Part shown: piece after piece, positions 5,129-59,069 of the stretch
Position numbering within the stretch: position 1 is the stretch's first letter
How the letters are laid out: each line of letters begins with the position of its first letter
Virus record (IMG/VR): IMGVR_UViG_3300046532_001353
Location: 1 to 59,069 of that record
Reading direction: 5' to 3' (one strand)
From: a virus
Lineage: Duplodnaviria; Caudoviricetes
Length of the DNA: 59,069 bases
The notes under the pieces: generated by a model
Database searches by the model: none
The model's input: the letters and a program-made list of their open reading frames with translations, nothing else
Told to the model about the DNA's origin: nothing
Made by a program: the position numbers and the translations under genes

Positions 5129-5136
5129 TATTTATA
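5129..5136 (-). promoter_or_regulatory. T4-type late promoter
   Basis: Exact TATAAATA on the minus strand upstream of gp2. Confidence 0.75.
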
Positions 5137-5629
5137 TCCGTTTCTTAAGTGTTTTCCATATTCTTTTACCGGTCTTTGTTTTACTTACTTTAAATTTCAT
5201 AGACATTGTTTTAATTCCCATAGCTTCTAATTCATTCTCAGTCCATATCTGAAACTCATAACCTCTATCATCTGCATACTTCTTTGCATACTTCCACTTA
5301 GATGTATTCTTCATATAAGTTAATGCTTCATTAAGCTTCTTACGTTTAGGTGGTTGTGTTTGCGCATGTGGTTTAATTTCAACCAAGATGGTACGACCTG
5401 TATTCGTTCGTATAGTAAGATCAACAAAGTATCTATGTGGCTTACGATCAGTTGAACATATATATGGTATGACAGTTTCTTCAGACTGCCACCACTTAAC
5501 CCATGTTGCTTTATCCATATATCTAAACGTATTGCGTTCCCATAATGACCTATAATGTATCATATCAATATTACCATTATATTTTTCAGGGTGTTTTGGT
5601 CGCCAAGAGCCAGAATATGTCTTTTTCAT
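5132..5629 (-). CDS. gp4: Head completion nuclease gp4 (TnsA-like PD-(D/E)xK)
   Basis: YSG.WRPKHPEKYNG, YRSLWE, W.SEE.VIPY, HRYFVD, LVEIKP, KW.YA, FQIWTE. Confidence 0.92.
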   Translation of the reverse strand: MKKTYSGSWRPKHPEKYNGNIDMIHYRSLWERNTFRYMDKATWVKWWQSEETVIPYICSTDRKPHRYFVDLTIRTNTGRTILVEIKPHAQTQPPKRKKLNEALTYMKNTSKWKYAKKYADDRGYEFQIWTENELEAMGIKTMSMKFKVSKTKTGKRIWKTLKKRI

Positions 5630-5634
5630 ATAAC

Positions 5635-5658
5635 TATTTATACAAATTCGTATAAATA
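5635..5658. promoter_or_regulatory. Back-to-back divergent late promoters (gp4 leftward, gp48 rightward)
   Basis: TATAAATA on the minus strand at 5635-5642 and on the plus strand at 5651-5658. Confidence 0.85.
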
Positions 5659-31543: not shown

Positions 31544-34500
31544 ATGTCAAAATTAAAACTACAGGGTGATGCAGGCGGAACTGGTATATTTACTATCGCT
31601 TCTCCTAATTCAAATACTGATAGAACAATAACTCTACCGGATGATGCCGGTACAATCTTAACAGCAGCACAAACAAGTTCAGCGGGATATGCTTTTGTTG
31701 TAGATGAAGATAACATGGCAAGTAACCTTGCTACTAAAGTACCTACACAGCAAAGTGTTAAAGCTTATGTTGATGCTCAAATAGCTAGTGAGAATACACT
31801 TGCCGAAGATAACGATGTTAACATTACATCTGCGGCAGATGGTTCATTACTATTATATGATACAGGTACATCAACATGGATCGACAATGTAATGAGTGGT
31901 GATGCTACGATGACAGATGGTGGTGTTATAACTATAGCAGCCGGTGCAATTGATACAGCAATGATTGCAGCAGATAATATTGTTGGTTCAATCATAGCAG
32001 ATAACACAATCGATTCAGAACACTATGCAGCAGGCAGTATTGATTTAGAACATATGAGTGCCAACTCAGTTGATTCCGACAACTACGTTGATGGCTCTAT
32101 TGATACAGCTCACTTCGCAGCAGGTTCTGTTGATGAAGCAGCAATGGGTGCTAACTCAGTAAACTCTGCTGAACTAATAGATGGAAGCGTAGACCTATCT
32201 CATATGAGTGTAAACTCAATTGATAGTGATCAATACGTTGATGGATCTATTGACACTGCTCATATTGCAACTTCACAGATTACAAATGCTCTTATGGCAG
32301 ATGATGCTATTGACTCAGCAGAGATTGCTGATGGTGCTATTGATACAGTACATATTGCAGCAGATCAAATTACTTCAGCATTGATTGCTGATGATCAAAT
32401 TGATAGTGAACATATAGTTGATGGATCAGTTGACCTAGCTCATATGAGTGTTAACAGTATTGATTCAGATCAATATGTTGATGGTTCAATTGACACAGCC
32501 CACTTTGCGGCAGGTGTAGTAGATGCAGCGGCGATGGGTGCTAACTCAGTTGACTCATCAGAATTAGTTGATGGATCAGTTGACTTATCTCATATGTCAG
32601 CTAACTCAGTAGACAGTGACCAATACGTTGATGGTTCAGTGGACAATGTTCATATGGCTAACTCAAGTGTTACAGTAAGTGATGGTTCAAACACATCACC
32701 TATTGCTCTTGGTGGTACATTAACTTTTGCTGGAACTACTAATGAAACTACAGTTGCTGAGAATGCAGGAACAATCACGGTCGGCTTACCAGACAATGTA
32801 ACAATTGCAGGTAACCTAACAGTCAGTGGTACAACAACAAGTGTATCTTCAACTACAATTACAGTTGCTGATCCATTAGTTGCTCTAGCCACAAACAACA
32901 ATGCAGCTGATGCAGTTGATATTGGTATCTATGGTTTGTATGATACATCAGGTTCACAAGACTTATATAGTGGTTTATTCAGAGATGCTTCTGATTCAGG
33001 TAAATGGAAAATCTTTAAAGACAATCAAGCCGAGCCTACTACAACAGTTAATGTTGGTGGTGCTGGTTATGCAACTGGTACTTTAGTTGCTAACTTAGAA
33101 GGTAATGTTACAGGCGCCTTAACAGGTAATGCTGATACTACAACTGCTTTTGCAACTGCAAGAACGATTGCTCAAACAGGTGATGTAGTCTGGTCATCAG
33201 GAAGTTTTGATGGAACAGCTAATGTAACTGCGGTTGCAACTATTCAAGCTAACGCGGTTGATAGTGCAGAGATTGCAAGTGGTGCTATTGACTTAGCTCA
33301 TATGTCAGTTAACTCAATTGACTCTGATCAATACGTTGATGGTTCAATTGATACTGCTCACATTGCTAATGATCAAATCACTGCAGCGTTAATGGCAGAC
33401 AATAGTATTAATTCTGATATGTATGTTGATGGTTCAATTGATACTGCTCACATTGCAGCAGATCAGATTACATCAGCTCTAATTGCAGATGACCAAATTG
33501 ATTCAGAACATTATGTTGATGGATCTATTGACACTGCTCACATAGCGATAGACCAAATCACAAATGCGTTAATGGCAGATGATGCTATTGACTCTGCTCA
33601 AATAGCAGATGGTTCTATTGATACAGTTCATATAGCAGCTGATAATATTACATCAGCATTGATTGCAGATGATCAGATTGATTCAGAACATATAGTTGAT
33701 GGTTCAATAGACTTAGCACATATGAGTGTTAACTCTATAGATTCAGACCAGTATGTTGATGGTTCAATTGACTTAGCTCATATGTCAGTTAACTCGGTTG
33801 ATTCAGATCAGTATGTTGATGGATCAGTAGATAATGTTCATATGGCTAACTCAAGCATTACTGTTACTGATGGTTCAAACTCTACAGCTATGGCACTTGG
33901 TACTACAGTTACTTTTGCTGGTACTTCAAATGAAATTGAAGTAGGTGAAAGTTCAGGAACAATCACAGTTGGTTTACCAGACAATGTAACCATTGCAGGT
34001 AACTTAACAGTTAGTGGTACAACAACAAGTTTATCCTCAACAACAATCGAAGTTGCTGATCCATTAATTGAATTAGCTACAAATAATAATGCAGCTGATG
34101 CAGTTGATATCGGTGTCTATGGTTTATATGATACAAGTGGTTCACAAGATTTATACTCTGGTTTATTCAGAGATGCTTCAGACTCAGGTAAGTGGAAACT
34201 ATTTAAAGATAATCAAGCACAACCTACTACAACGGTTAACACTGCTGGTGCAGGCTATGCAGTTGGTACCTTAGTTGCAAATGTTGAAGGTGCTGTAACA
34301 GGTAACTCTACTACAGCAACTGCCTTAGCAACTGGTAGAACAATTGCTCAAACCGGAGATGTGGTTTGGAGTTCAGGAAGTTTTGATGGTTCAGCTAATG
34401 TAACAGCAGTTGCAACTATTCAAGCTAATGCAGTGGACTCAGCAGAGATTACAAGTGGTGCTATTGACTTGGCTCATATGAGTGTAAACTCTATTGACTC

Positions 34501-35794
34501 TGATCAATATGTAGATGGTTCAATTGATACAATTCATATTGCTGCAGATCAAATTACAAATGCATTAATTGCAGATGATCAAATTGATTCAGAACATTAT
34601 GTTGATGCTTCAATTGATACTGCTCATATTGCTGATGATCAAGTAACTGCAGCTAAGTTAGCTAACTCGATTAATACTGATATAGCTACTGGTGTAGCTG
34701 CCTTGCCTAAAGCAGGTGGAGCAATGACAGGAGCCATTACAACTAACTCAACCTTTGATGGAGTTGATATTGCTACAAGGGATGGAGTACTAACAAGTAC
34801 AACTACTACTGCTAATGCAGCATTACCTAAAGCTGGTGGTGCAATGACAGGAGCCATTACAACTAACTCAACCTTTGATGGAAGAGATGTTGCTACTGAT
34901 GGTACTAAGTTAGATGGTATTGAAGCAAGTGCTACAGCTGATCAAACTAAGTCTGATATAGAAGGTCTTGGTATTGATGTACCAGCGGCTAACCTTACTG
35001 GAACAGTTGCAGCGGCTAGATTAGATACAGCAACAACAACAGCTGAAAGTGATGATAGTACTAAGATAGCAACAACAGCTTATGTTACAGATAAGATTAC
35101 TACCCTCATTGGTGGTGCTCCAAGTACATTGAATGATTTGAATGAATTGGCAGCAGCGATTAATGATGATGCTTCTTACAACACTACATTAACTACAGCG
35201 TTAGCTACTAAGCTTCCTAAAGCTGGTGGTGCTATGACAGGTGCCATTACTACTAACTCCACATTTGATGGAAGGGATGTAGGAACAGATGGTACTAAGT
35301 TAGATACAATAGAAACTAATGCTACGGCTGATCAAACAGCAGCACAAATCAAAACCCATTTAGAGAATGGAATTGATAGTGTTCATTATGTTGATGGAAG
35401 TATTGATCATGTTCACCTAGCTAATGATATTATTGATGGAGATAACATTGGTGATAATGTTATTAACAGCGAACACATAGCAGCAGATTCAATTGATGCA
35501 GAACACTTAGCACCTAACAGTGTTAATAGTGATGCTTACATTGATAACAGTATTCTTGCAATACACCTTGTTTCAAATGCAGTAACAACTGTTAAAATTC
35601 TAGATGATAATGTAACTGGAGCTAAGATAGCTGATGATGCAATTGACTCAAACCACTATGCTGCAGACTCTATTGATGAAGAGCATATTGCAAATGATGC
35701 AGTAGGTTCAGCAGAATTAAAATCATTAGCAACACTATTGATTATTAACTCGGCTGGAACAACTGTTGCAACATATCATTGTGCTGGAGCTTAA
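31544..35794 (+). CDS. Long modular fibre protein with 10-residue acidic/His repeats
   Basis: Dozens of SIDTAHIAAD/QIDSEHYVDG/SIDSDQYVDG decamers, a large internal duplication, and modules shared with the upstream fibre gene. Confidence 0.8.
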   Translation: MSKLKLQGDAGGTGIFTIASPNSNTDRTITLPDDAGTILTAAQTSSAGYAFVVDEDNMASNLATKVPTQQSVKAYVDAQIASENTLAEDNDVNITSAADGSLLLYDTGTSTWIDNVMSGDATMTDGGVITIAAGAIDTAMIAADNIVGSIIADNTIDSEHYAAGSIDLEHMSANSVDSDNYVDGSIDTAHFAAGSVDEAAMGANSVNSAELIDGSVDLSHMSVNSIDSDQYVDGSIDTAHIATSQITNALMADDAIDSAEIADGAIDTVHIAADQITSALIADDQIDSEHIVDGSVDLAHMSVNSIDSDQYVDGSIDTAHFAAGVVDAAAMGANSVDSSELVDGSVDLSHMSANSVDSDQYVDGSVDNVHMANSSVTVSDGSNTSPIALGGTLTFAGTTNETTVAENAGTITVGLPDNVTIAGNLTVSGTTTSVSSTTITVADPLVALATNNNAADAVDIGIYGLYDTSGSQDLYSGLFRDASDSGKWKIFKDNQAEPTTTVNVGGAGYATGTLVANLEGNVTGALTGNADTTTAFATARTIAQTGDVVWSSGSFDGTANVTAVATIQANAVDSAEIASGAIDLAHMSVNSIDSDQYVDGSIDTAHIANDQITAALMADNSINSDMYVDGSIDTAHIAADQITSALIADDQIDSEHYVDGSIDTAHIAIDQITNALMADDAIDSAQIADGSIDTVHIAADNITSALIADDQIDSEHIVDGSIDLAHMSVNSIDSDQYVDGSIDLAHMSVNSVDSDQYVDGSVDNVHMANSSITVTDGSNSTAMALGTTVTFAGTSNEIEVGESSGTITVGLPDNVTIAGNLTVSGTTTSLSSTTIEVADPLIELATNNNAADAVDIGVYGLYDTSGSQDLYSGLFRDASDSGKWKLFKDNQAQPTTTVNTAGAGYAVGTLVANVEGAVTGNSTTATALATGRTIAQTGDVVWSSGSFDGSANVTAVATIQANAVDSAEITSGAIDLAHMSVNSIDSDQYVDGSIDTIHIAADQITNALIADDQIDSEHYVDASIDTAHIADDQVTAAKLANSINTDIATGVAALPKAGGAMTGAITTNSTFDGVDIATRDGVLTSTTTTANAALPKAGGAMTGAITTNSTFDGRDVATDGTKLDGIEASATADQTKSDIEGLGIDVPAANLTGTVAAARLDTATTTAESDDSTKIATTAYVTDKITTLIGGAPSTLNDLNELAAAINDDASYNTTLTTALATKLPKAGGAMTGAITTNSTFDGRDVGTDGTKLDTIETNATADQTAAQIKTHLENGIDSVHYVDGSIDHVHLANDIIDGDNIGDNVINSEHIAADSIDAEHLAPNSVNSDAYIDNSILAIHLVSNAVTTVKILDDNVTGAKIADDAIDSNHYAADSIDEEHIANDAVGSAELKSLATLLIINSAGTTVATYHCAGA
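32600..34530 (+). repeat. Internal duplication of a ~250-codon fibre module
   Basis: The block VDNVHMANSS...YDTSGSQDLYSGLFRDASDSGKWK...VATIQANAVDSAEI occurs twice about 1.19 kb apart (~32600-33350 and ~33790-34530), nearly identical in protein. Confidence 0.85.
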
Positions 35795-35803
35795 TATTAA
35801 CAC

Positions 35804-35844
35804 GTCTATTTATACTTTTCCATTTCAGATTAGTATAAATAGAC
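35804..35844. promoter_or_regulatory. 13-bp perfect inverted repeat carrying late-promoter consensus in both arms
   Basis: GTCTATTTATACT (35804-35816) / AGTATAAATAGAC (35832-35844); TATAAATA on + at 35834-35841 and on - at 35807-35814. Confidence 0.8.
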
Positions 35845-35866: not shown

Positions 35867-36778
35867 ATGGCAGCAAGAACACCAATAAAATTAGATGGTT
35901 CAAACCTAAAGGAAATGTCGAGTACCGATTATAATAACATCGTTGCTAGGACAGCTTATCTTTATATGACTGATCCGTCTGTCACATTGTCACAGGTTGG
36001 TTCTAGTGGTTCATTGGATTCTATGAATGATACAAGAACTCAGGCAGGATCAGCTACAACACATGCGAGTAGCTTTCGTTCTGCAGGTGATACACCTGAC
36101 GTGAGTACTGTAACAGTTACATATGATAAAATAACTGAAGCAACTGCTTCGTTATCAGCACCAGCTGATACGAACAGTATAAGATTTCCAGTTTGGAATA
36201 ACGGTGGGAATATTCAAGCTATGACTGTACAAGAAATGTATGATACATATGTTAGTGCTGCAACAGATTCTCTTATAGCATCTCAACCATATAAGATTCA
36301 TACATCTACATCATCGCCATCTGGATATACTATTGTTTCTTCAACTGCGGTGTTTACAGATACGATAGCTAATGCTGGAGCATATACAGCAGGTGGTATT
36401 ACTGAAACACAAGATCAACCAACTACTGTAACTAACTATTATCTTCATAGAAACACTGGTTCATCTGTATCATACAGCGCAACACCAATGTATATTGATG
36501 CAAGTCAAAATCTTAAAGAATATACATCTGCAGAGTTTGATGCTATTATGAAAGAAGTAATTAGATACTCTACAGTTAATTCAGGTGATAGCTGTAGACT
36601 AAGATATTATATCGGTGGAGCAGGTACAAACATGGGTTCCGGTATAGTTAATACTAAATTGAATAGTTCAACATACGCTCAACGTGAAGTTGGTGGAGAC
36701 GACTATCGTACACAGGAATTTCCGTCAGGTTCGGCGGCAACAATATCAACATACTATTTAAAAGCGAGGAAATACTAA
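35867..36778 (+). CDS. Hypothetical Ser/Thr-rich virion-associated protein
   Basis: AAGGA SD, late promoter upstream, follows the fibre genes; ends YRTQEFPSG...ISTYYLK. Confidence 0.6.
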   Translation: MAARTPIKLDGSNLKEMSSTDYNNIVARTAYLYMTDPSVTLSQVGSSGSLDSMNDTRTQAGSATTHASSFRSAGDTPDVSTVTVTYDKITEATASLSAPADTNSIRFPVWNNGGNIQAMTVQEMYDTYVSAATDSLIASQPYKIHTSTSSPSGYTIVSSTAVFTDTIANAGAYTAGGITETQDQPTTVTNYYLHRNTGSSVSYSATPMYIDASQNLKEYTSAEFDAIMKEVIRYSTVNSGDSCRLRYYIGGAGTNMGSGIVNTKLNSSTYAQREVGGDDYRTQEFPSGSAATISTYYLKARKY

Positions 36779-53152: not shown

Positions 53153-53170
53153 TATTTATATGTATAAATA
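53153..53170. promoter_or_regulatory. Back-to-back divergent late promoters heading both arms of the enzyme cluster
   Basis: TATTTATA-TG-TATAAATA: minus copy 53153-53160, plus copy 53163-53170. Confidence 0.85.
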
Positions 53171-53175
53171 AAGGT

Positions 53176-53805
53176 ATGAATAAAGATATATTATATTCCT
53201 ACCTTGTGCTGTATGGAATACAAAGTGAATTGAATATTAGATTACATGATCCTGAACAGTTTGTTAACTGGACAGAAGAGAACTTTGAATACGTAAGATA
53301 CAATCCTAGGAAGCCTATCGATCGATGGGGGTTAAGCATAACAAGTTATGATGGTGGACTAAGCGGTATTCCTGATTTAGATAGTTTGGGAGATTACTGT
53401 ATAGAAAATAATGTTTCTCTTGAAGAGAGTGACTTCAATGTACCAACAGAAGTTTATAAACAATCAAAAGAATTGCAAGAAGTACTAGAACCATTTAAAG
53501 AAAATTGTTATAGAACACATATATTAAAATTAAATCCAGGTAGTTACTTCCCTAAACATAGAGATCTAAGGCTAGATAATTTTAATCACTTTAGATTAAT
53601 TATGCCTTTAAAGAATCCGTGTACATTTGTAATAGAAGATAAAATTTTAACTTGGGATGTAGGTACAATGTATTTTGTAGATACTGCTAAAGTACATTAT
53701 CTATTTAATGCTACGCATGATCCAAGTTATTGGTTAGTGCTTAATGTTGAATTGACAGAAGAAGTATATGAAGAAGTAACAAAACATTTTTTTTATAAAG
53801 CATGA
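53176..53805 (+). CDS. 2OG-Fe(II) oxygenase, aspartyl/asparaginyl beta-hydroxylase-like
   Basis: R.HILKL.PG.YFPKHRD (HxD), MYFVDT.KVH, distal His. Confidence 0.7.
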   Translation: MNKDILYSYLVLYGIQSELNIRLHDPEQFVNWTEENFEYVRYNPRKPIDRWGLSITSYDGGLSGIPDLDSLGDYCIENNVSLEESDFNVPTEVYKQSKELQEVLEPFKENCYRTHILKLNPGSYFPKHRDLRLDNFNHFRLIMPLKNPCTFVIEDKILTWDVGTMYFVDTAKVHYLFNATHDPSYWLVLNVELTEEVYEEVTKHFFYKA

Positions 53806-54347: not shown

Positions 54348-54591
54348 TTGGAATCATTTAAAAGAAGCTAAAGAAAAAGCCGGAGGGAAAGGAGGCTATT
54401 GGTGGCATTTTAAGTTTGCATTCATAGAAGCTTTATGGTTATTACTTGCAAGTATAGCATCTTTAATACACGCTGTCTTTCCTTTCTTAATTGACTTTAA
54501 AATTGTTAAAGCAAGAATTAATAGACTTAAATATCTTAAGTCAAAATTACCTAATGACCCAGACTTAAAGAGGATACATTTTGATGATTGA
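54337..54591 (+). CDS. Small membrane-associated protein (DUF6356-like)
   Basis: HLKE.....Y..HFKFA...A..L..AS..SLIHA.FPF pattern. Confidence 0.55.
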   Translation: MWFNWNHLKEAKEKAGGKGGYWWHFKFAFIEALWLLLASIASLIHAVFPFLIDFKIVKARINRLKYLKSKLPNDPDLKRIHFDD

Positions 54592-55420
54592 TACGATTGG
54601 TTATAAGAATGGAGAGTTCTTACCTTTAGAATATTGTGGCCCAACTATATTAGACTTTGGATTTATACATTGTGATTCAACATATGATGTGATACCTATA
54701 TATGATGGTAAAGCCTTTTGTCTTGATAGACATTTAAATAGATTTGTAGCTTCAGCTGAATACTATGATCTTGAATTACCTTATATGCATTACCTAGGAG
54801 TTGCTGGTGAGTTGATGGAAAGAAATCCTGGTATAAAAGATGCGTTCCTTTGGATAATTGCATGGAGAGGATACCCTAAGTCAGGACAGCCAAGAGATAT
54901 TAAAAGTGCACCAGTGAATGTGGCAATGTATATAAAGCCTAGCTATCCTTTAAAGGAAGGAGCTGATATAGTAAATGTACAACTATCTGATCAGCTTAGA
55001 GTACCTGATAATGTCTACAGCCAAGCAGCAAAGAATTTTTCATGGATAGATTTTACAAGAGCACAACTAGGTAAAACAGATACATATGACACTGTCGTTT
55101 TATTAGATCAGACAAGACATATAACAGAAGGCCCAGGATTTAATGTTGGATTTGTGTGGGAAGATTACATATATACACCATTAAATAATTGTCTTAATGG
55201 CGTGACAATGAGTGTTGTTGAAGATATATGTGAAGATACTCCAGGCCAGTTTACTAGATGCCACTTAAAAGAAGACGTATGGAATTTTGCAGATGAGATC
55301 TTTTTAACATCTTCATCAGGCGGTGTTACTGCAACACAACGAACAGGGAAAGTAACCGAATGGTTACAACGTGAATATATAGAGAGGACAAAACATTATG
55401 ACTACATTACAGAACTTTAA
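54581..55420 (+). CDS. Fold-type IV PLP enzyme (branched-chain/D-amino acid aminotransferase, PabC-like)
   Basis: DFGF...DSTYD, LDRHL.RF..SA, AKNFSW (PLP Lys), ITEGPGFN, LNGVT, ADEIFLTSS.GGV. Confidence 0.88.
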   Translation: MMIDTIGYKNGEFLPLEYCGPTILDFGFIHCDSTYDVIPIYDGKAFCLDRHLNRFVASAEYYDLELPYMHYLGVAGELMERNPGIKDAFLWIIAWRGYPKSGQPRDIKSAPVNVAMYIKPSYPLKEGADIVNVQLSDQLRVPDNVYSQAAKNFSWIDFTRAQLGKTDTYDTVVLLDQTRHITEGPGFNVGFVWEDYIYTPLNNCLNGVTMSVVEDICEDTPGQFTRCHLKEDVWNFADEIFLTSSSGGVTATQRTGKVTEWLQREYIERTKHYDYITEL

Positions 55421-56021
55421 AAATACATGGGATAAATTTTTTAGCAAAGATAAAATACCTGTAGACACAGGTAAATATTTTAGAATAGTTCCTAATAGAC
55501 TTACAGAAGAAACTAAAAAAGAATTACTTAAATTAGCAAATGAGAAAGATGCGTTTGTAGATATAAGTTATAAAGTAAGTTTTTTTAAATACCCATCTAA
55601 ACTTCAGAAGTTTGCACCTTGGGGTGTTGCTCAAATGTTAAGAGTATCTGAAGAAGATAGTACAATACATAAAGATAATAATAGAACAAATGAATTTGAT
55701 AATACTTATATGCCAAGACGAACAGTGATTAATTATCCTCTTACTGATAATCCTTCAAAAACAAATTGGTATGATGATAATAAAAATTTAGTTGCTACTA
55801 CAACATATGATAAACAATTATATCCAAGTTTGCCAGATGAGTGTTTTACATTAGAAGGTAAAAACTATAATGCAGCTATACTTAATACTGGTGGAGGTTA
55901 TCATAATGTTGAATTTAAAGATGGTGATGAACCACGTATAGTATTTCAATTATGTTTTGATAGTGATATAGATGATGTACATGAAATGTTTAAATATATG
56001 CATGGCGGATGTAGAATATGA
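55398..56021 (+). CDS. Putative 2OG-Fe(II) oxygenase/cupin-fold protein
   Basis: IHKD (HxD), INYPL, ILNT...HNV, PRIVFQL.F. Confidence 0.55.
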   Translation: MTTLQNFKNTWDKFFSKDKIPVDTGKYFRIVPNRLTEETKKELLKLANEKDAFVDISYKVSFFKYPSKLQKFAPWGVAQMLRVSEEDSTIHKDNNRTNEFDNTYMPRRTVINYPLTDNPSKTNWYDDNKNLVATTTYDKQLYPSLPDECFTLEGKNYNAAILNTGGGYHNVEFKDGDEPRIVFQLCFDSDIDDVHEMFKYMHGGCRI

Positions 56022-57037
56022 TGGAACTGAAGTTAGATTTTGATGATGTATTAATTAAACCTCGTAGATCACTCAAACCTCTTACAAGGAAAAGTGTTAA
56101 TATAGAAATACCTTGGCTGGATAATACAGCGCACCCTATTGTTATTTCGAATATGCCTTCAACTGGAACATATAAAATTGCAGAGCATATGACACCAATG
56201 AAAGTGTTTACATTTATTCATAAAGAATATAAAGTACATGAGCATAGAGATAATTTAGCTAACATGGGAGATCGTAGTTACATTGGTATTACAAGTGGTG
56301 TGAGAGATAAAGATGTAATGAGAACAATAGATATTATATCAGGCTTTGAAGATATTGGCATGATTAATGTTGATGTAGCTAACGTATATGCTAATGTTGA
56401 TGGAATGATTAAAACTATTAAAACATTTAAAGAACATTTCCCAAATATATTATTATGTGCTGGTAATATATGTGATAAAAATTTAATGGAAGAGTTAGTT
56501 GAAGCTGGTGCAGATTATGTTAAAGTAGGTGTAGGTTCAGGTGCTGCGTGTATTACTCGAACAGAAGTAGGCGTAGGTATACCTCAGTTAAGTGCCGTAA
56601 TGGAATGCTACGAAGAAGCACAACGTATAGGATGTAAAATAATATCCGACGGTGGTTGTGTTACTTCGGGTGATGTAGCTAAAGCAATTGCGGCAGGCGC
56701 TGATATGGTTATGATTGCTGGTATGGTATCTAGTTGTTATGAATGTAGTAACATGGTAGAGATTGATGGTCAACAGTATGTAAATCTATATGGATTGGGT
56801 TCAACAAAGCAATATAATATACACACTATAAGCGAAATGGAATACAGACCTAATGAAGGTAGAGACTTAATGATTCCAGCAAAGGGTTATATAAAGGATA
56901 TCATTAATCAAATCCTTGGTGGATTGAGAAGTGTATGTACATATGTAGGTGTATCTGACATTGAAGAATTATCAATACATGCAGAATTCATTAGAGTAAA
57001 CAGTACTCATAATAAATCTTTAGAAAGATATGGATAA
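56018..57037 (+). CDS. guaC: GMP reductase
   Basis: KLDFDDVLIKPRRS, DVAN, AGN, GAD.VKVGVG.GAAC.TR...GVG.PQLSAV.EC, IISDGGC...GDVAKA..AGAD.VM, YRPNEGR, ILGGLRS.CTYVG; no CBS domains. Confidence 0.88.
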   Translation: MMELKLDFDDVLIKPRRSLKPLTRKSVNIEIPWLDNTAHPIVISNMPSTGTYKIAEHMTPMKVFTFIHKEYKVHEHRDNLANMGDRSYIGITSGVRDKDVMRTIDIISGFEDIGMINVDVANVYANVDGMIKTIKTFKEHFPNILLCAGNICDKNLMEELVEAGADYVKVGVGSGAACITRTEVGVGIPQLSAVMECYEEAQRIGCKIISDGGCVTSGDVAKAIAAGADMVMIAGMVSSCYECSNMVEIDGQQYVNLYGLGSTKQYNIHTISEMEYRPNEGRDLMIPAKGYIKDIINQILGGLRSVCTYVGVSDIEELSIHAEFIRVNSTHNKSLERYG

Positions 57038-57752
57038 CTATTTACAACAGATTTTAAATTGGAAACGATTTGGAATAAATATCACATCTTCTGGAACATC
57101 AGGAGATCCAAAGCTTATCCATAGATCACCTGATAATCTTCGTGCATGTAATGAGGTTGCTATACATGCTCAACAATTAACTAGCAAATCTAAAGTATTA
57201 ACTGTAACAAAAACTGATCATGCTGGTGGATTACTATTACAAACATTACCAGCTTATACATTAGGGTGTAAAGTCATTGATGTAGAAAAGTTTAATCCTT
57301 GGAATTTTTTAAAGAAGGTGAAAGGATATACACATACGTTCTTAACACCTGAACAAATGAAAGCAGTAATGATGACTAAAGGGTTTAAAGATTGTGACTT
57401 AAGTGGTATAAGAATACTTGGTGGTAGTAACCCAGTTAGTTATGATATGATAGAAGCATTTGTATCTAAGGGAGCACTTGTTCAACCTAACTGGGGTATG
57501 AGTGAAGTAGGCCCAATGGTAATCAATATTGAGATAAATAATATAGAACATATAAAATATTTAAAAGAAAGAACACCTAAAGGCCATACTATACTAGGGA
57601 ATGCATATTGGTGTGATTGGAAAATTGATAATGGTGAACTATATGTTAAAAGTAATATGTGTATTGAGCCTGGTTGGTTTGCCACAGGTGATATTGTTTC
57701 TTTAGATAATGAAGAAAGAATGTATTATGAAGATAGAAAATTGTATAAATAA
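57030..57752 (+). CDS. Truncated AMP-binding (ANL/acyl-CoA synthetase) enzyme
   Basis: TSSGTSGDPK P-loop, H.GGL, WGMSE.G, GEL.VK, WFATGD, YYEDRK; only 240 aa. Confidence 0.75.
   Translation: MDNYLQQILNWKRFGINITSSGTSGDPKLIHRSPDNLRACNEVAIHAQQLTSKSKVLTVTKTDHAGGLLLQTLPAYTLGCKVIDVEKFNPWNFLKKVKGYTHTFLTPEQMKAVMMTKGFKDCDLSGIRILGGSNPVSYDMIEAFVSKGALVQPNWGMSEVGPMVINIEINNIEHIKYLKERTPKGHTILGNAYWCDWKIDNGELYVKSNMCIEPGWFATGDIVSLDNEERMYYEDRKLYK
57744..57751 (+). promoter_or_regulatory. T4-type late promoter upstream of the structured RNA candidates
   Basis: TATAAATA ending 7 nt before the first closing stem begins at 57759. Confidence 0.75.
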
Positions 57753-57758
57753 CCTTAT

Positions 57759-57876
57759 ATAGTTAATAGATGGGTGTTCTTTGACACTCTTTCGGTCCCT
57801 TAACTGACTTCTTCGGTTGTCAGCGGCTACGTGGGATACCTTTTATCGATGACGAGAGCATCCTTCTATTAGCTAT
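57759..57876 (+). ncRNA. Candidate structured ncRNA 1 (family not recognised)
   Basis: ATAGTTAATAGA-T-GGGTGTTCTT pairs with GAGAGCATCC-T-TCTATTAGCTAT (12 bp, U.U mismatch, 10 bp, four G-U pairs); internal CTGAC..cUUCGg..GTCAG hairpin. Confidence 0.7.
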
Positions 57877-57883
57877 TATTATC

Positions 57884-57989
57884 TAGGTATTAAGTGAGTC
57901 ACTGTTCGCACTCGACTTCGTAAAAAGGTTTCGGCCTTCATCCTTTCGGGGATGCGTTTATTGATCCGAGGTGACTCTCTTAATAGCTA
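57884..57989 (+). ncRNA. Candidate structured ncRNA 2 (family not recognised)
   Basis: TAGGTATTAAG-T-GAGTCACT pairs with GGTGACTC-T-CTTAATAGCTA; internal AAGGT-TTCG-GCCTT and CATCCT-TTCG-GGGATG hairpins. Confidence 0.7.
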
Positions 57990-58005
57990 TGTACACAATA
58001 TAATT

Positions 58006-58452
58006 ATGATTGAAAAAATACTAGCGGGAACACTCGCAATTTCATTAAGTGGATGTAGTATGTTAGGTGGTTTCAACGCACTAGATCCCAAGAATTTAAT
58101 TAAGACAGCAGCAACGACTGGTGTCACATACGTTGTTGCGGGCCCTATACCAGCGGCGGTCAATGCAGCAACATCTATAGCAGTTGATTCAGTTTTACCT
58201 GATGACAAACCTGCAATAAGCGATATCGAAGCTGGGAATGAAGAACAATTGAAGGCATATATGTTTGCAAATTTAACGGAAACCATTTTATATGGTGTAA
58301 TAGGATTTTTAATATTTACAAATGTCGTAGGACCTTGGGCAGCACAGCGTAGAGCAAAACGTAAAGCTGAACAGATAGCGCAAGAACAACGTAGGAAAGA
58401 AAAGTACGATGCAATGAAAGCTGAACTTGCAGTAAGAAATAAAGTCGGATGA
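58006..58452 (+). CDS. Lipoprotein with C-terminal transmembrane helix
   Basis: From the ATG at 58006: MIEKILAGTLAISLSG|C lipobox; TM segment ILYGVIGFLIFTNVVGPW followed by basic QRRAKRK. Confidence 0.7.
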   Translation: MIEKILAGTLAISLSGCSMLGGFNALDPKNLIKTAATTGVTYVVAGPIPAAVNAATSIAVDSVLPDDKPAISDIEAGNEEQLKAYMFANLTETILYGVIGFLIFTNVVGPWAAQRRAKRKAEQIAQEQRRKEKYDAMKAELAVRNKVG

Positions 58453-58781
58453 AAACATACAAAGAAGTAGAAGCAATCGATTGTATATGTGAAGACATGT
58501 ACAAAGACTTGGTTGTTGAAAAGTACGAAGGTAAAACATTAAATGATCCTACACGTTCACCTAAAGGTTCTCCTGGTAAGTTCCATGTATATGTAAAGAA
58601 CGCTAAAGGCAATGTTATAAAGGTAAACTTTGGTGATCCTAATTCAGAGATTAAAAGAGATAACCCTGCAAGACGTAAATCATTTAGAGCACGTCATAAC
58701 TGTGCAGATAAAAAAGACAAAACAACTGCAGGGTATTGGTCTTGCTATCAATGGAGAGCAAGCGCAAAGGTAGATAATTGA
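58449..58781 (+). CDS. Conserved phage protein (DUF6321-like)
   Basis: KF.VYVKN.KGNV.KV.FGDP...IK...P.RRKSFRARHNC.....K..A.YWSC..W. Confidence 0.75.
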   Translation: MKTYKEVEAIDCICEDMYKDLVVEKYEGKTLNDPTRSPKGSPGKFHVYVKNAKGNVIKVNFGDPNSEIKRDNPARRKSFRARHNCADKKDKTTAGYWSCYQWRASAKVDN

Positions 58782-58792
58782 TAAGGAGTTAC

Positions 58793-58951
58793 ATGCAAAA
58801 AGTTACTGACCGTAACATTAAAAAAGATGTACAATTAAAACATACTAAACAAAGATTACATGGTATGTTAAAAGATAAGTCTCATAAGAAAATTAATCTT
58901 GTAAAGAGTTTGAAGAATCTTAAGAAACGCAACGAAAGAAAGGGACTATAA
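58793..58951 (+). CDS. Small basic hypothetical protein (52 aa, below the ORF-track cutoff)
   Basis: AAGGAG SD; MQKVTDRNIKKDVQLKHTKQRLHGMLKDKSHKKINLVKSLKNLKKRNERKGL*. Confidence 0.6.
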   Translation: MQKVTDRNIKKDVQLKHTKQRLHGMLKDKSHKKINLVKSLKNLKKRNERKGL

Positions 58952-58953
58952 TT

Positions 58954-59069
58954 ATGTGGAAATATATAGGTTACGCTGGTATTATTATACCAGTGCTAGG
59001 TGCTACTTACGGTGGTTTAATGATAGCATCAGATTTAGAAATCAAACTCAACCAAGCTTACGATATGGC
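58954..59069 (+). CDS. Membrane-anchored hypothetical protein, runs off the window
   Basis: MWKYIGYAGIIIPVLGATYGGLMIASDLEIKLNQAYDM..., open to the window end. Confidence 0.55.
   Translation, partial: MWKYIGYAGIIIPVLGATYGGLMIASDLEIKLNQAYDM

Follow-up and report, generated by a model that had tools for sequence, protein, structure and literature searches.

Tandem structured RNAs of an uncatalogued family in the predicted 5' leader of a late lipoprotein gene of marine T4-like phages

Phage T4 encodes two stable RNAs, rnaC (species 1, 139 nt) and rnaD (species 2, 119 nt), whose roles are given as unknown in a 2010 review; according to the same review, the T4-type phages have neither a functionally characterised riboswitch nor a trans-acting small RNA (PMC3014915). 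In the variable regions of T4-like phages, the boundaries of exchangeable modules are marked by PeSLs, which combine a promoter with a stem-loop and are small early-promoter/terminator composites with many copies per genome (PMC4122927). The intergenic regions of IMG/VR were screened by Fremin, Bhatt and Kyrpides (2023), and the main-text sections of that study report 8495 DNA-virus candidates and 879 motifs located at most 25 nt upstream of genes (PMC10690425).

The stretch of viral DNA analysed here (the window) is 59,069 nt long. It carries T4-like baseplate genes, and among cultured phages its gp6 homologue is closest to those of OM43 phage Melnitz (40%) and pelagiphage HTVC008M (35%). The source of the window is therefore an uncultured marine T4-like myovirus. 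The baseplate genes and the gp6 relatives make a late-promoter role of the sequence TATAAATA plausible, and an earlier note on this DNA, which had read it as a late promoter, thus agrees with a T4-type box in a T4-like myovirus. The note had further described two back-to-back elements behind TATAAATA that share a matched plan (a helix of 11-12 positions, a U.U mismatch and a further 8-10 bp), and had interpreted them as a pair of small RNAs, perhaps processed, that might serve as protein decoys or mimics, antitoxin mimics or packaged RNAs. The plan was borne out by the predicted folds and by nine homologues with compensatory changes, and the CACUC motif 3' of the stem in both elements and the UUCG hairpins (one in element 1, two in element 2) were found as described. 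From sequence comparison and modelling we conclude that the two elements are tandem members of an uncatalogued structured-RNA family of narrow spread, which appears to form the 5' leader of a lipoprotein late mRNA in one marine T4-like lineage. Since the data show a lineage-specific 5' leader of a single gene that is absent from most relatives, a cis role is at least as likely as a freestanding small RNA.

The arrangement resembles that of T4 rnaC and rnaD, which are likewise two back-to-back non-coding RNAs, 6 nt apart; in the window, element 1 starts 7 nt after TATAAATA and the two elements, of 118 nt and 106 nt, are 7 nt apart. However, the T4 pair lies in a tRNA cluster, whereas the window has no tRNA genes and its elements occupy a predicted mRNA leader behind the late promoter. 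In addition, rnaC has a tRNA-like T arm and neither T4 RNA has a closing helix of ∼23 bp. When the family model R1 was run on the T4 tRNA/rnaC/rnaD region (4 kb), the best score was 12.6 bits and no match fell on rnaC or rnaD (L214:1409-1672). The leader is also similar to a PeSL in being a promoter with a stem-loop at a module boundary, but it stands behind the late box, measures 85-250 nt, is multi-looped, occurs at one site per genome and carries no terminator-type U tract after either closing helix. The Y RNAs (including YrlA), 6S RNA and the phi29 pRNA share with the elements a long closing helix with conserved bulges that is formed by the 5' and 3' ends. They differ from them in that the elements have no Rfam match, no tRNA-like module and, in the short forms (L212 and L156), no three-way junction. 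A Ro/TROVE gene (PF05731) was absent from the three phage records searched (G000-G002, 42-78% complete). RNase III hairpins of the T7 R1.1 type and 5' stabilising stem-loops are alike in having a two-turn helix with a central mismatch, a position between genes at the start of the message and a paired 5' end. In contrast to these, the helix of the elements, known here as a predicted fold, encloses a conserved multi-loop interior (40-75 nt) and occurs in tandem. The screen of IMG/VR covers the collection that holds the relatives of the window, and the family is not described in its main-text sections; since the candidates are listed in its supplements, a prior listing is possible (PMC10690425). 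In the papers returned by a literature search, no description of the motif was found. The coordinates of the locus are given in Table 1.

Table 1. Features of the leader and its flanking genes in the window
Feature	Position	Strand	Basis
Upstream gene, 240-aa AMP-binding (acyl-CoA-ligase-like) protein	57030..57752	+	ORF; Pfam PF00501, E 1.3e-14
T4-type late promoter box TATAAATA (putative)	57744..57751	+	sequence; box precedes lipoprotein gene in relatives
Element 1 (type 1a)	57757..57878, fold 57759-57876	+	predicted fold; R1 67.5 bits; P5 covaries with L200 copy
Element 1, P1	57759-57770/57865-57876		
Element 1, U.U	57771/57864		
Element 1, P2	57772-57781/57854-57863		
Element 1, CACUC	57785-57789		
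Element 1, P5	57795-57799/57833-57837		
Element 1, apical c(UUCG)g hairpin	57804-57823		
A/U-rich linker between elements	57879..57883	+	unpaired or weakly paired when whole leader folded
Element 2 (type 1b)	57884..57989	+	predicted fold; R1 85.6 bits; covariation with L200 and L176 copies
Element 2, P1	57884-57894/57979-57989		
Element 2, U.U	57895/57978		
Element 2, P2	57896-57903/57970-57977		
Element 2, interior: loop CAC/UC; P4 UCGA/UUGA; two u(UUCG)g hairpins			
A/U-rich unstructured spacer up to start codon	57990..58005	+	unpaired in MFE of all complete leaders
Downstream gene, 148-aa lipoprotein	58006..58452	+	lipobox LSGC, C-terminal membrane segment, basic tail; phrog_19883

Element 1 was predicted to fold into a 12-bp helix, the U.U mismatch and a further 10 bp around a branched interior (MFE -39.6 kcal/mol, z -4.19), and element 2 into an 11-position helix with one G.G mismatch, the U.U mismatch and 8 bp (MFE -34.1, z -3.39). 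For either element, none of 200 shuffles was as good. When the whole leader was folded jointly, each element retained its own fold and the final 16 nt before the ATG at 58006 were unpaired. The R1 scores of the two elements indicate that they are true homologues, a relationship that goes beyond the shared plan. In the fold models, each unit is a self-contained rod with a closing helix of ∼23-26 bp, conserved internal loops and a variable tip. The closing helix consists of P1 (12 bp), one fixed U.U and then P2/P3. Between the foot of the helix and the mismatch lie 12 bp; only in the L212 type is the mismatch replaced by a U-A pair. The conserved unpaired motifs of type 1 are CAC opposite UC, UUCG opposite UUUAU, and UUUAU(C/U)G.

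A DNA similarity search against 50,697 phage records gave no match for the leader or for positions 55000-59069. Homologous loci were fetched via the flanking proteins. In 9 of 12 viral loci and 67 of 80 metagenome loci, TATAAATA stands exactly 5 nt before the lipoprotein ATG, and no leader is present. This TATAAATA-N5-ATG layout, judged from its sequence, should yield a leaderless mRNA. The remaining 13 metagenome loci comprise nine with complete leaders (107-254 nt), three that end inside the leader and one that is uninformative; these counts refer to the 80 loci, and a further 66 loci confirmed by tblastn fall outside them. Together with the viral relatives L081 and L082, the metagenome loci gave nine further homologues, so that with the window pair 11 distinct elements are available. 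They were grouped into type 1a (element 1 of the window, element 1 of L200, L167, L156 and L212), type 1b (element 2 of the window, element 2 of L200 and L176) and type 2, which has a different interior (L211, L173 and L175). The units of the family are 85-122 nt long. Both elements of the window show the layout of the R1 family, in which a 12-bp P1, the U.U mismatch and the P2/P3 clamp are followed by the lipoprotein ATG, and L200 carries a second tandem pair, again 1a followed by 1b. In all nine complete leaders the helix begins 3-7 nt after TATAAATA, and the spacer and the AUG are unpaired in the MFE structure. The 5' arm of L156 contains a 7-nt tandem duplication (L156:1089-1110) right before the helix and so has a longer unpaired 5' end. 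No target-site duplications were consistent at the leader borders among the loci compared.

The TATAAATA-N5-ATG pattern was also found at two more sites of the window, 5627-5642 on the minus strand, where it opens ORF 5132..5629(-), and 53163-53178 on the plus strand, where it opens ORF 53176..53805(+). Its three occurrences compare with 0.37 expected, and three of 100 shuffles reached three. On the basis of such sequence patterns, leaderless late mRNAs may be common in the phage group of the window. Two further intergenic structures were noted. Between ORFs 31544..35794 and 35867..36778, a perfect inverted repeat with 13-bp arms (35804-35844; z -4.2) contains two divergent TATAAATA boxes and may serve as a late promoter in both directions or form a hairpin. 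The region 2860-2995, between two minus-strand ORFs, is structured (z -3.6 on the minus strand and -4.4 on the plus strand); its closing helix encloses three hairpins, and it matched neither R1 nor Rfam.

The 11 sequences were aligned with MAFFT, and RNAalifold yielded a closing helix of 23 bp. In this helix 95.9% of the 246 cells are standard pairs, and 13 of the 23 pairs show changes on both sides. None of 500 column shuffles reached any of the five measures used. As a control the partner was slid by 1-3 columns, upon which pairing fell to 36-54%. The inner helices covary within types: P5 reads GUCCC/GGGAU in the window and GCUCC/GGAGU in L200, and covariation was also seen in P3 of type 1b. 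The fold is kept by selection. Between the window and L200, 94 of 123 aligned columns are identical in element 1 and 84 of 116 in element 2, compared with 190 of 240 third codon positions in the ligase gene and 91 of 140 in the lipoprotein gene. Such identities indicate that the elements drift at about the synonymous rate of their flanks and yet keep their pairs. The ligase genes of L200 and L212 are identical at 688 of 720 positions, and their leaders differ in copy number and in tip insertions; near-identical ligases with different leaders point to rapid turnover or exchange of leader modules.

The plus strand folded better than its complement in 11 of 11 elements, by 5.8-16 kcal/mol, and the R1 scores of element 2 and element 1 (85.6/67.5 bits) dropped to 24.2/22.6 on the minus strand. 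Of the paired cells, 32 are G.U, which become A.C mismatches on the opposite strand, and UUCG-capped hairpins recur among the elements. Taken together, the fold energies, the R1 scores, the G.U cells and the UUCG hairpins point to RNA of the plus strand; in this respect the note, which had argued against DNA palindromes, was right. It had also set the elements apart from tRNAs and from simple terminators: ARAGORN found no tRNA gene in the window, no terminator-type U tract follows either closing helix, and the sole terminator-like site in the leader is a 6-bp hairpin inside element 2. Its failure to recognise the family is matched by Rfam 15, which gave no match in the whole window at gathering thresholds and no match at E<=1 in eight homologous loci. 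At E<=10, the region 57500-58200 gave only two noise matches, of which mir-286 (57958-58052, 15.2 bits, E 9) overlaps the 3' end of element 2 and snoZ188 lies outside the elements.

The ORF upstream of the leader ends in TAT AAA TAA, and TATAAATA is formed by its last two codons and the stop codon. Wherever a locus extends far enough upstream, TATAAATA is present before the lipoprotein gene, regardless of which gene lies upstream. The lipoprotein start chosen by the ORF finder is an in-frame ATG at 57952, inside element 2. This ATG is not conserved, and the relatives indicate a start at 58006, 16 nt past the end of element 2; with 58006 as the true start, 54 nt of the RNA would be masked in an automatic annotation. 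We rejected the view that the leader is coding, as ATG 57952 is unconserved and the leader lengths differ by non-multiples of three. No Shine-Dalgarno motif was found in the spacer. The lipoprotein matches phrog_19883, a family without assigned function, and shows 39% identity with a protein of the SUP05 podophage Lau218; its lipobox, membrane segment and basic tail recall unimolecular spanins, a possible resemblance that comes without a family match. The following gene (58449-58781) had been called DUF6321-like, a designation that was not upheld, because no Pfam match to that family was obtained at E<=5. Its sole match is phrog_7595, again a family without function, and it is very widespread, a relative being encoded in 596 of 598 pattern-matched viral-contig stretches. 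On the other side, the leader is preceded by a run of metabolic-type genes (54581-57752) that encode a class IV aminotransferase, a 207-aa protein of unknown function, a protein of the GMP reductase/IMPDH family and the half-length (240 aa) AMP-binding protein. In public data, 551 proteins of similar length are homologous to this short ligase.

In the 59-kb window, searched with filters off, R1 matched nothing but the two known sites, and in the 140-kb contig of L082 it matched one site. There was no site in a 94-kb relative and no match in other phage loci of 459 kb and 75 kb. Exact and gapped arm patterns run on viral contigs returned only two known relatives plus chance matches in coding DNA, and core-motif patterns on the same kind of contigs returned either no match or seven chance matches that R1 rejected. 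These searches suggest that the family is single-copy per genome, in the sense of one site, and bound to one locus. A mobile multi-copy element was ruled out by the single site per genome. The elements were present in 12 of 12 loci with an AMP-ligase-like module upstream and nowhere else among the loci compared. All eight loci with the ligase directly upstream carry type 1, and all four with another gene in that place carry type 2; in L082 that gene lies between the ligase and the box. The 67 loci with other upstream genes all lack the element. A linkage to the ligase family as such was discarded, as 78 more distant ligase loci (271 kb) gave no R1 match and in most of them coding sequence follows directly after the ligase. 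On the lipoprotein tree the carriers are scattered, and eight changes are needed, at least four of them forced by well-supported branches. Because the carriers are scattered and presence tracks the upstream module, the junction between promoter and ATG is a recombination boundary between modules.

Parts of the stretch were found in six RNA-library runs, four of which were examined as contigs, and cover over the elements was patchy and shallow. A 190-nt contig without differences spans 57917-58106 and joins element 2 to the ORF, and a second contig (235 nt, 5 differences), from a relative, covers 57599-57833 and joins the 3' end of the ligase gene to element 1. These bridging contigs, being shallow, silent on transcript ends and open to DNA carry-over, are compatible with co-transcription and no more.

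The T4 late box lies about one helical turn before the start site (PMC2988020). With this distance, the late start would fall ∼6 nt after TATAAATA, at the foot of the helix, so that the 5' end of the RNA would be base-paired. Each unit would then fold independently and keep the A/U-rich start region accessible. Bacterial mRNAs whose 5' end is paired are protected from 5'-end-dependent decay, and the RNase III sites of phages are classically helices of two turns with a central loop. We therefore favour, at about even chances, a leader module that would act in cis by stabilising or insulating the late mRNA or by being processed from it, possibly by RNase III. The paired 5' end and the long helix would protect and insulate the message, and the two-turn helix with its central mismatch would be a likely entry for a double-strand-specific nuclease such as the host RNase III, whose cut would detach the folded RNA from the mRNA. 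Relatives that lack the module would express this gene from the leaderless layout. RNase III substrates have about two turns (at least 20 bp) and often a central internal loop, and the consensus of the 11 sequences has 23 pairs with a single U.U. RNase III processing of the elements is possible on this basis, that is, from helix length and comparison with T7 sites. The three phage records (42-78% complete) yielded no RNase III gene, so a host enzyme must be assumed. The position after the box, the single locus, the existence of a leaderless alternative state and the retention in 12 of 12 loci of the lineage despite near-synonymous divergence count for a cis leader. Against it count the conserved internal loops and the second copy, both of which are kept and neither of which a plain 5' stabiliser needs, and the sequence of the closing helix, which is better conserved than the interior and would also fit a trans RNA that is recognised and excised.

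In a different reading, the late promoter gives rise to stable small RNAs that are excised (for example by RNase III within the clamp) and act in trans as decoys or mimics for a host RNA-binding protein or defence factor, with the lipoprotein mRNA as a mere downstream passenger. We hold this to be possible but doubtful. Each unit folds autonomously, the internal loops CAC/UC, UUCG and UUUAU are common to types 1a and 1b, two diverged copies are retained in both the window and L200, and the clamp keeps its sequence, in contrast to the interior "cargo", which differs among types 1a, 1b and 2; T4 rnaC and rnaD, 6 nt apart, offer a precedent for the layout (PMC3014915). Conversely, the family is tied to one locus of one narrow lineage and most close relatives do without it, neither of the partner genes sought (Ro/TROVE and RNase III) was found in the three phage records (42-78% complete), and no Rfam small RNA is similar. 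On balance, a released trans RNA accounts nearly as well as a cis leader for the conservation of the inner loops, the retention of a second copy and the better preservation of the clamp sequence. A bolder form of this reading, which we consider unlikely, is that of "clamp-and-cargo" hairpin RNAs, in which the two-turn U.U helix would mark the RNA for excision and the fast-changing interior (types 1a, 1b and 2, and the tandems) would, late in infection, titrate a host factor that binds RNA or serves in defence; if true, no earlier small-RNA system acting in trans would be known from T4-like phages.

Compact folds with conserved internal loops that separate a promoter from its gene and vary in presence among close relatives could also be self-cleaving ribozymes or other self-processing insulators that trim the leader. 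This we regard as very unlikely, given that no Rfam 15 ribozyme family matched the window (E<=10) or eight homologous loci (E<=1) and that the conserved core differs between types 1 and 2. The probability is, if anything, slightly smaller that the elements are sensors (riboswitches or thermosensors) tuning lipoprotein translation by alternative pairing with the start region. Conserved unpaired nucleotides do lie within a closed fold just upstream of the start codon, and UUUAU appears complementary to the spacer in several homologues, although this complementarity, drawn by eye, is short and A/U-rich. However, a riboswitch joins an aptamer to an expression platform, and no such platform was found: the start region is unpaired in every MFE structure, the clamp isolates the fold and no terminator follows. 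Moreover, type 2 has an entirely different interior, and a ligand pocket would not survive such an exchange. We give least credence to an element that acts as DNA, as a recombination or replication hairpin or cruciform, or that does not act at all and is a neutral hitch-hiker at the module junction. Such a role would suit the module boundary between promoter and ATG, where presence follows the upstream gene and not the lipoprotein tree (at least four forced changes), and PeSLs are reported to mediate such shuffling in T4-like phages (PMC4122927). It is at odds with the strand asymmetry of the folds (5.8-16 kcal/mol in favour of plus, 11/11), with the 32 G.U cells and UUCG loops typical of RNA, and with compensatory evolution at about the neutral sequence rate, since a neutral remnant would not keep its pairs; one copy per genome also makes the element unusable as a dispersed recombination repeat.

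The cis leader thus remains our preferred reading. The family is narrow and its function is only proposed, and for these reasons it would not amount to a major surprise. It adds a family supported by covariation to the sparse list of RNAs encoded by phages, here in abundant uncultured marine myoviruses. The locus also offers a natural experiment, in which close relatives appear to express the same late gene either leaderless or behind one or two copies of a folded RNA. As both layouts exist among relatives, the effect that the RNA may have on mRNA stability, processing and translation would be directly testable by a leader swap.
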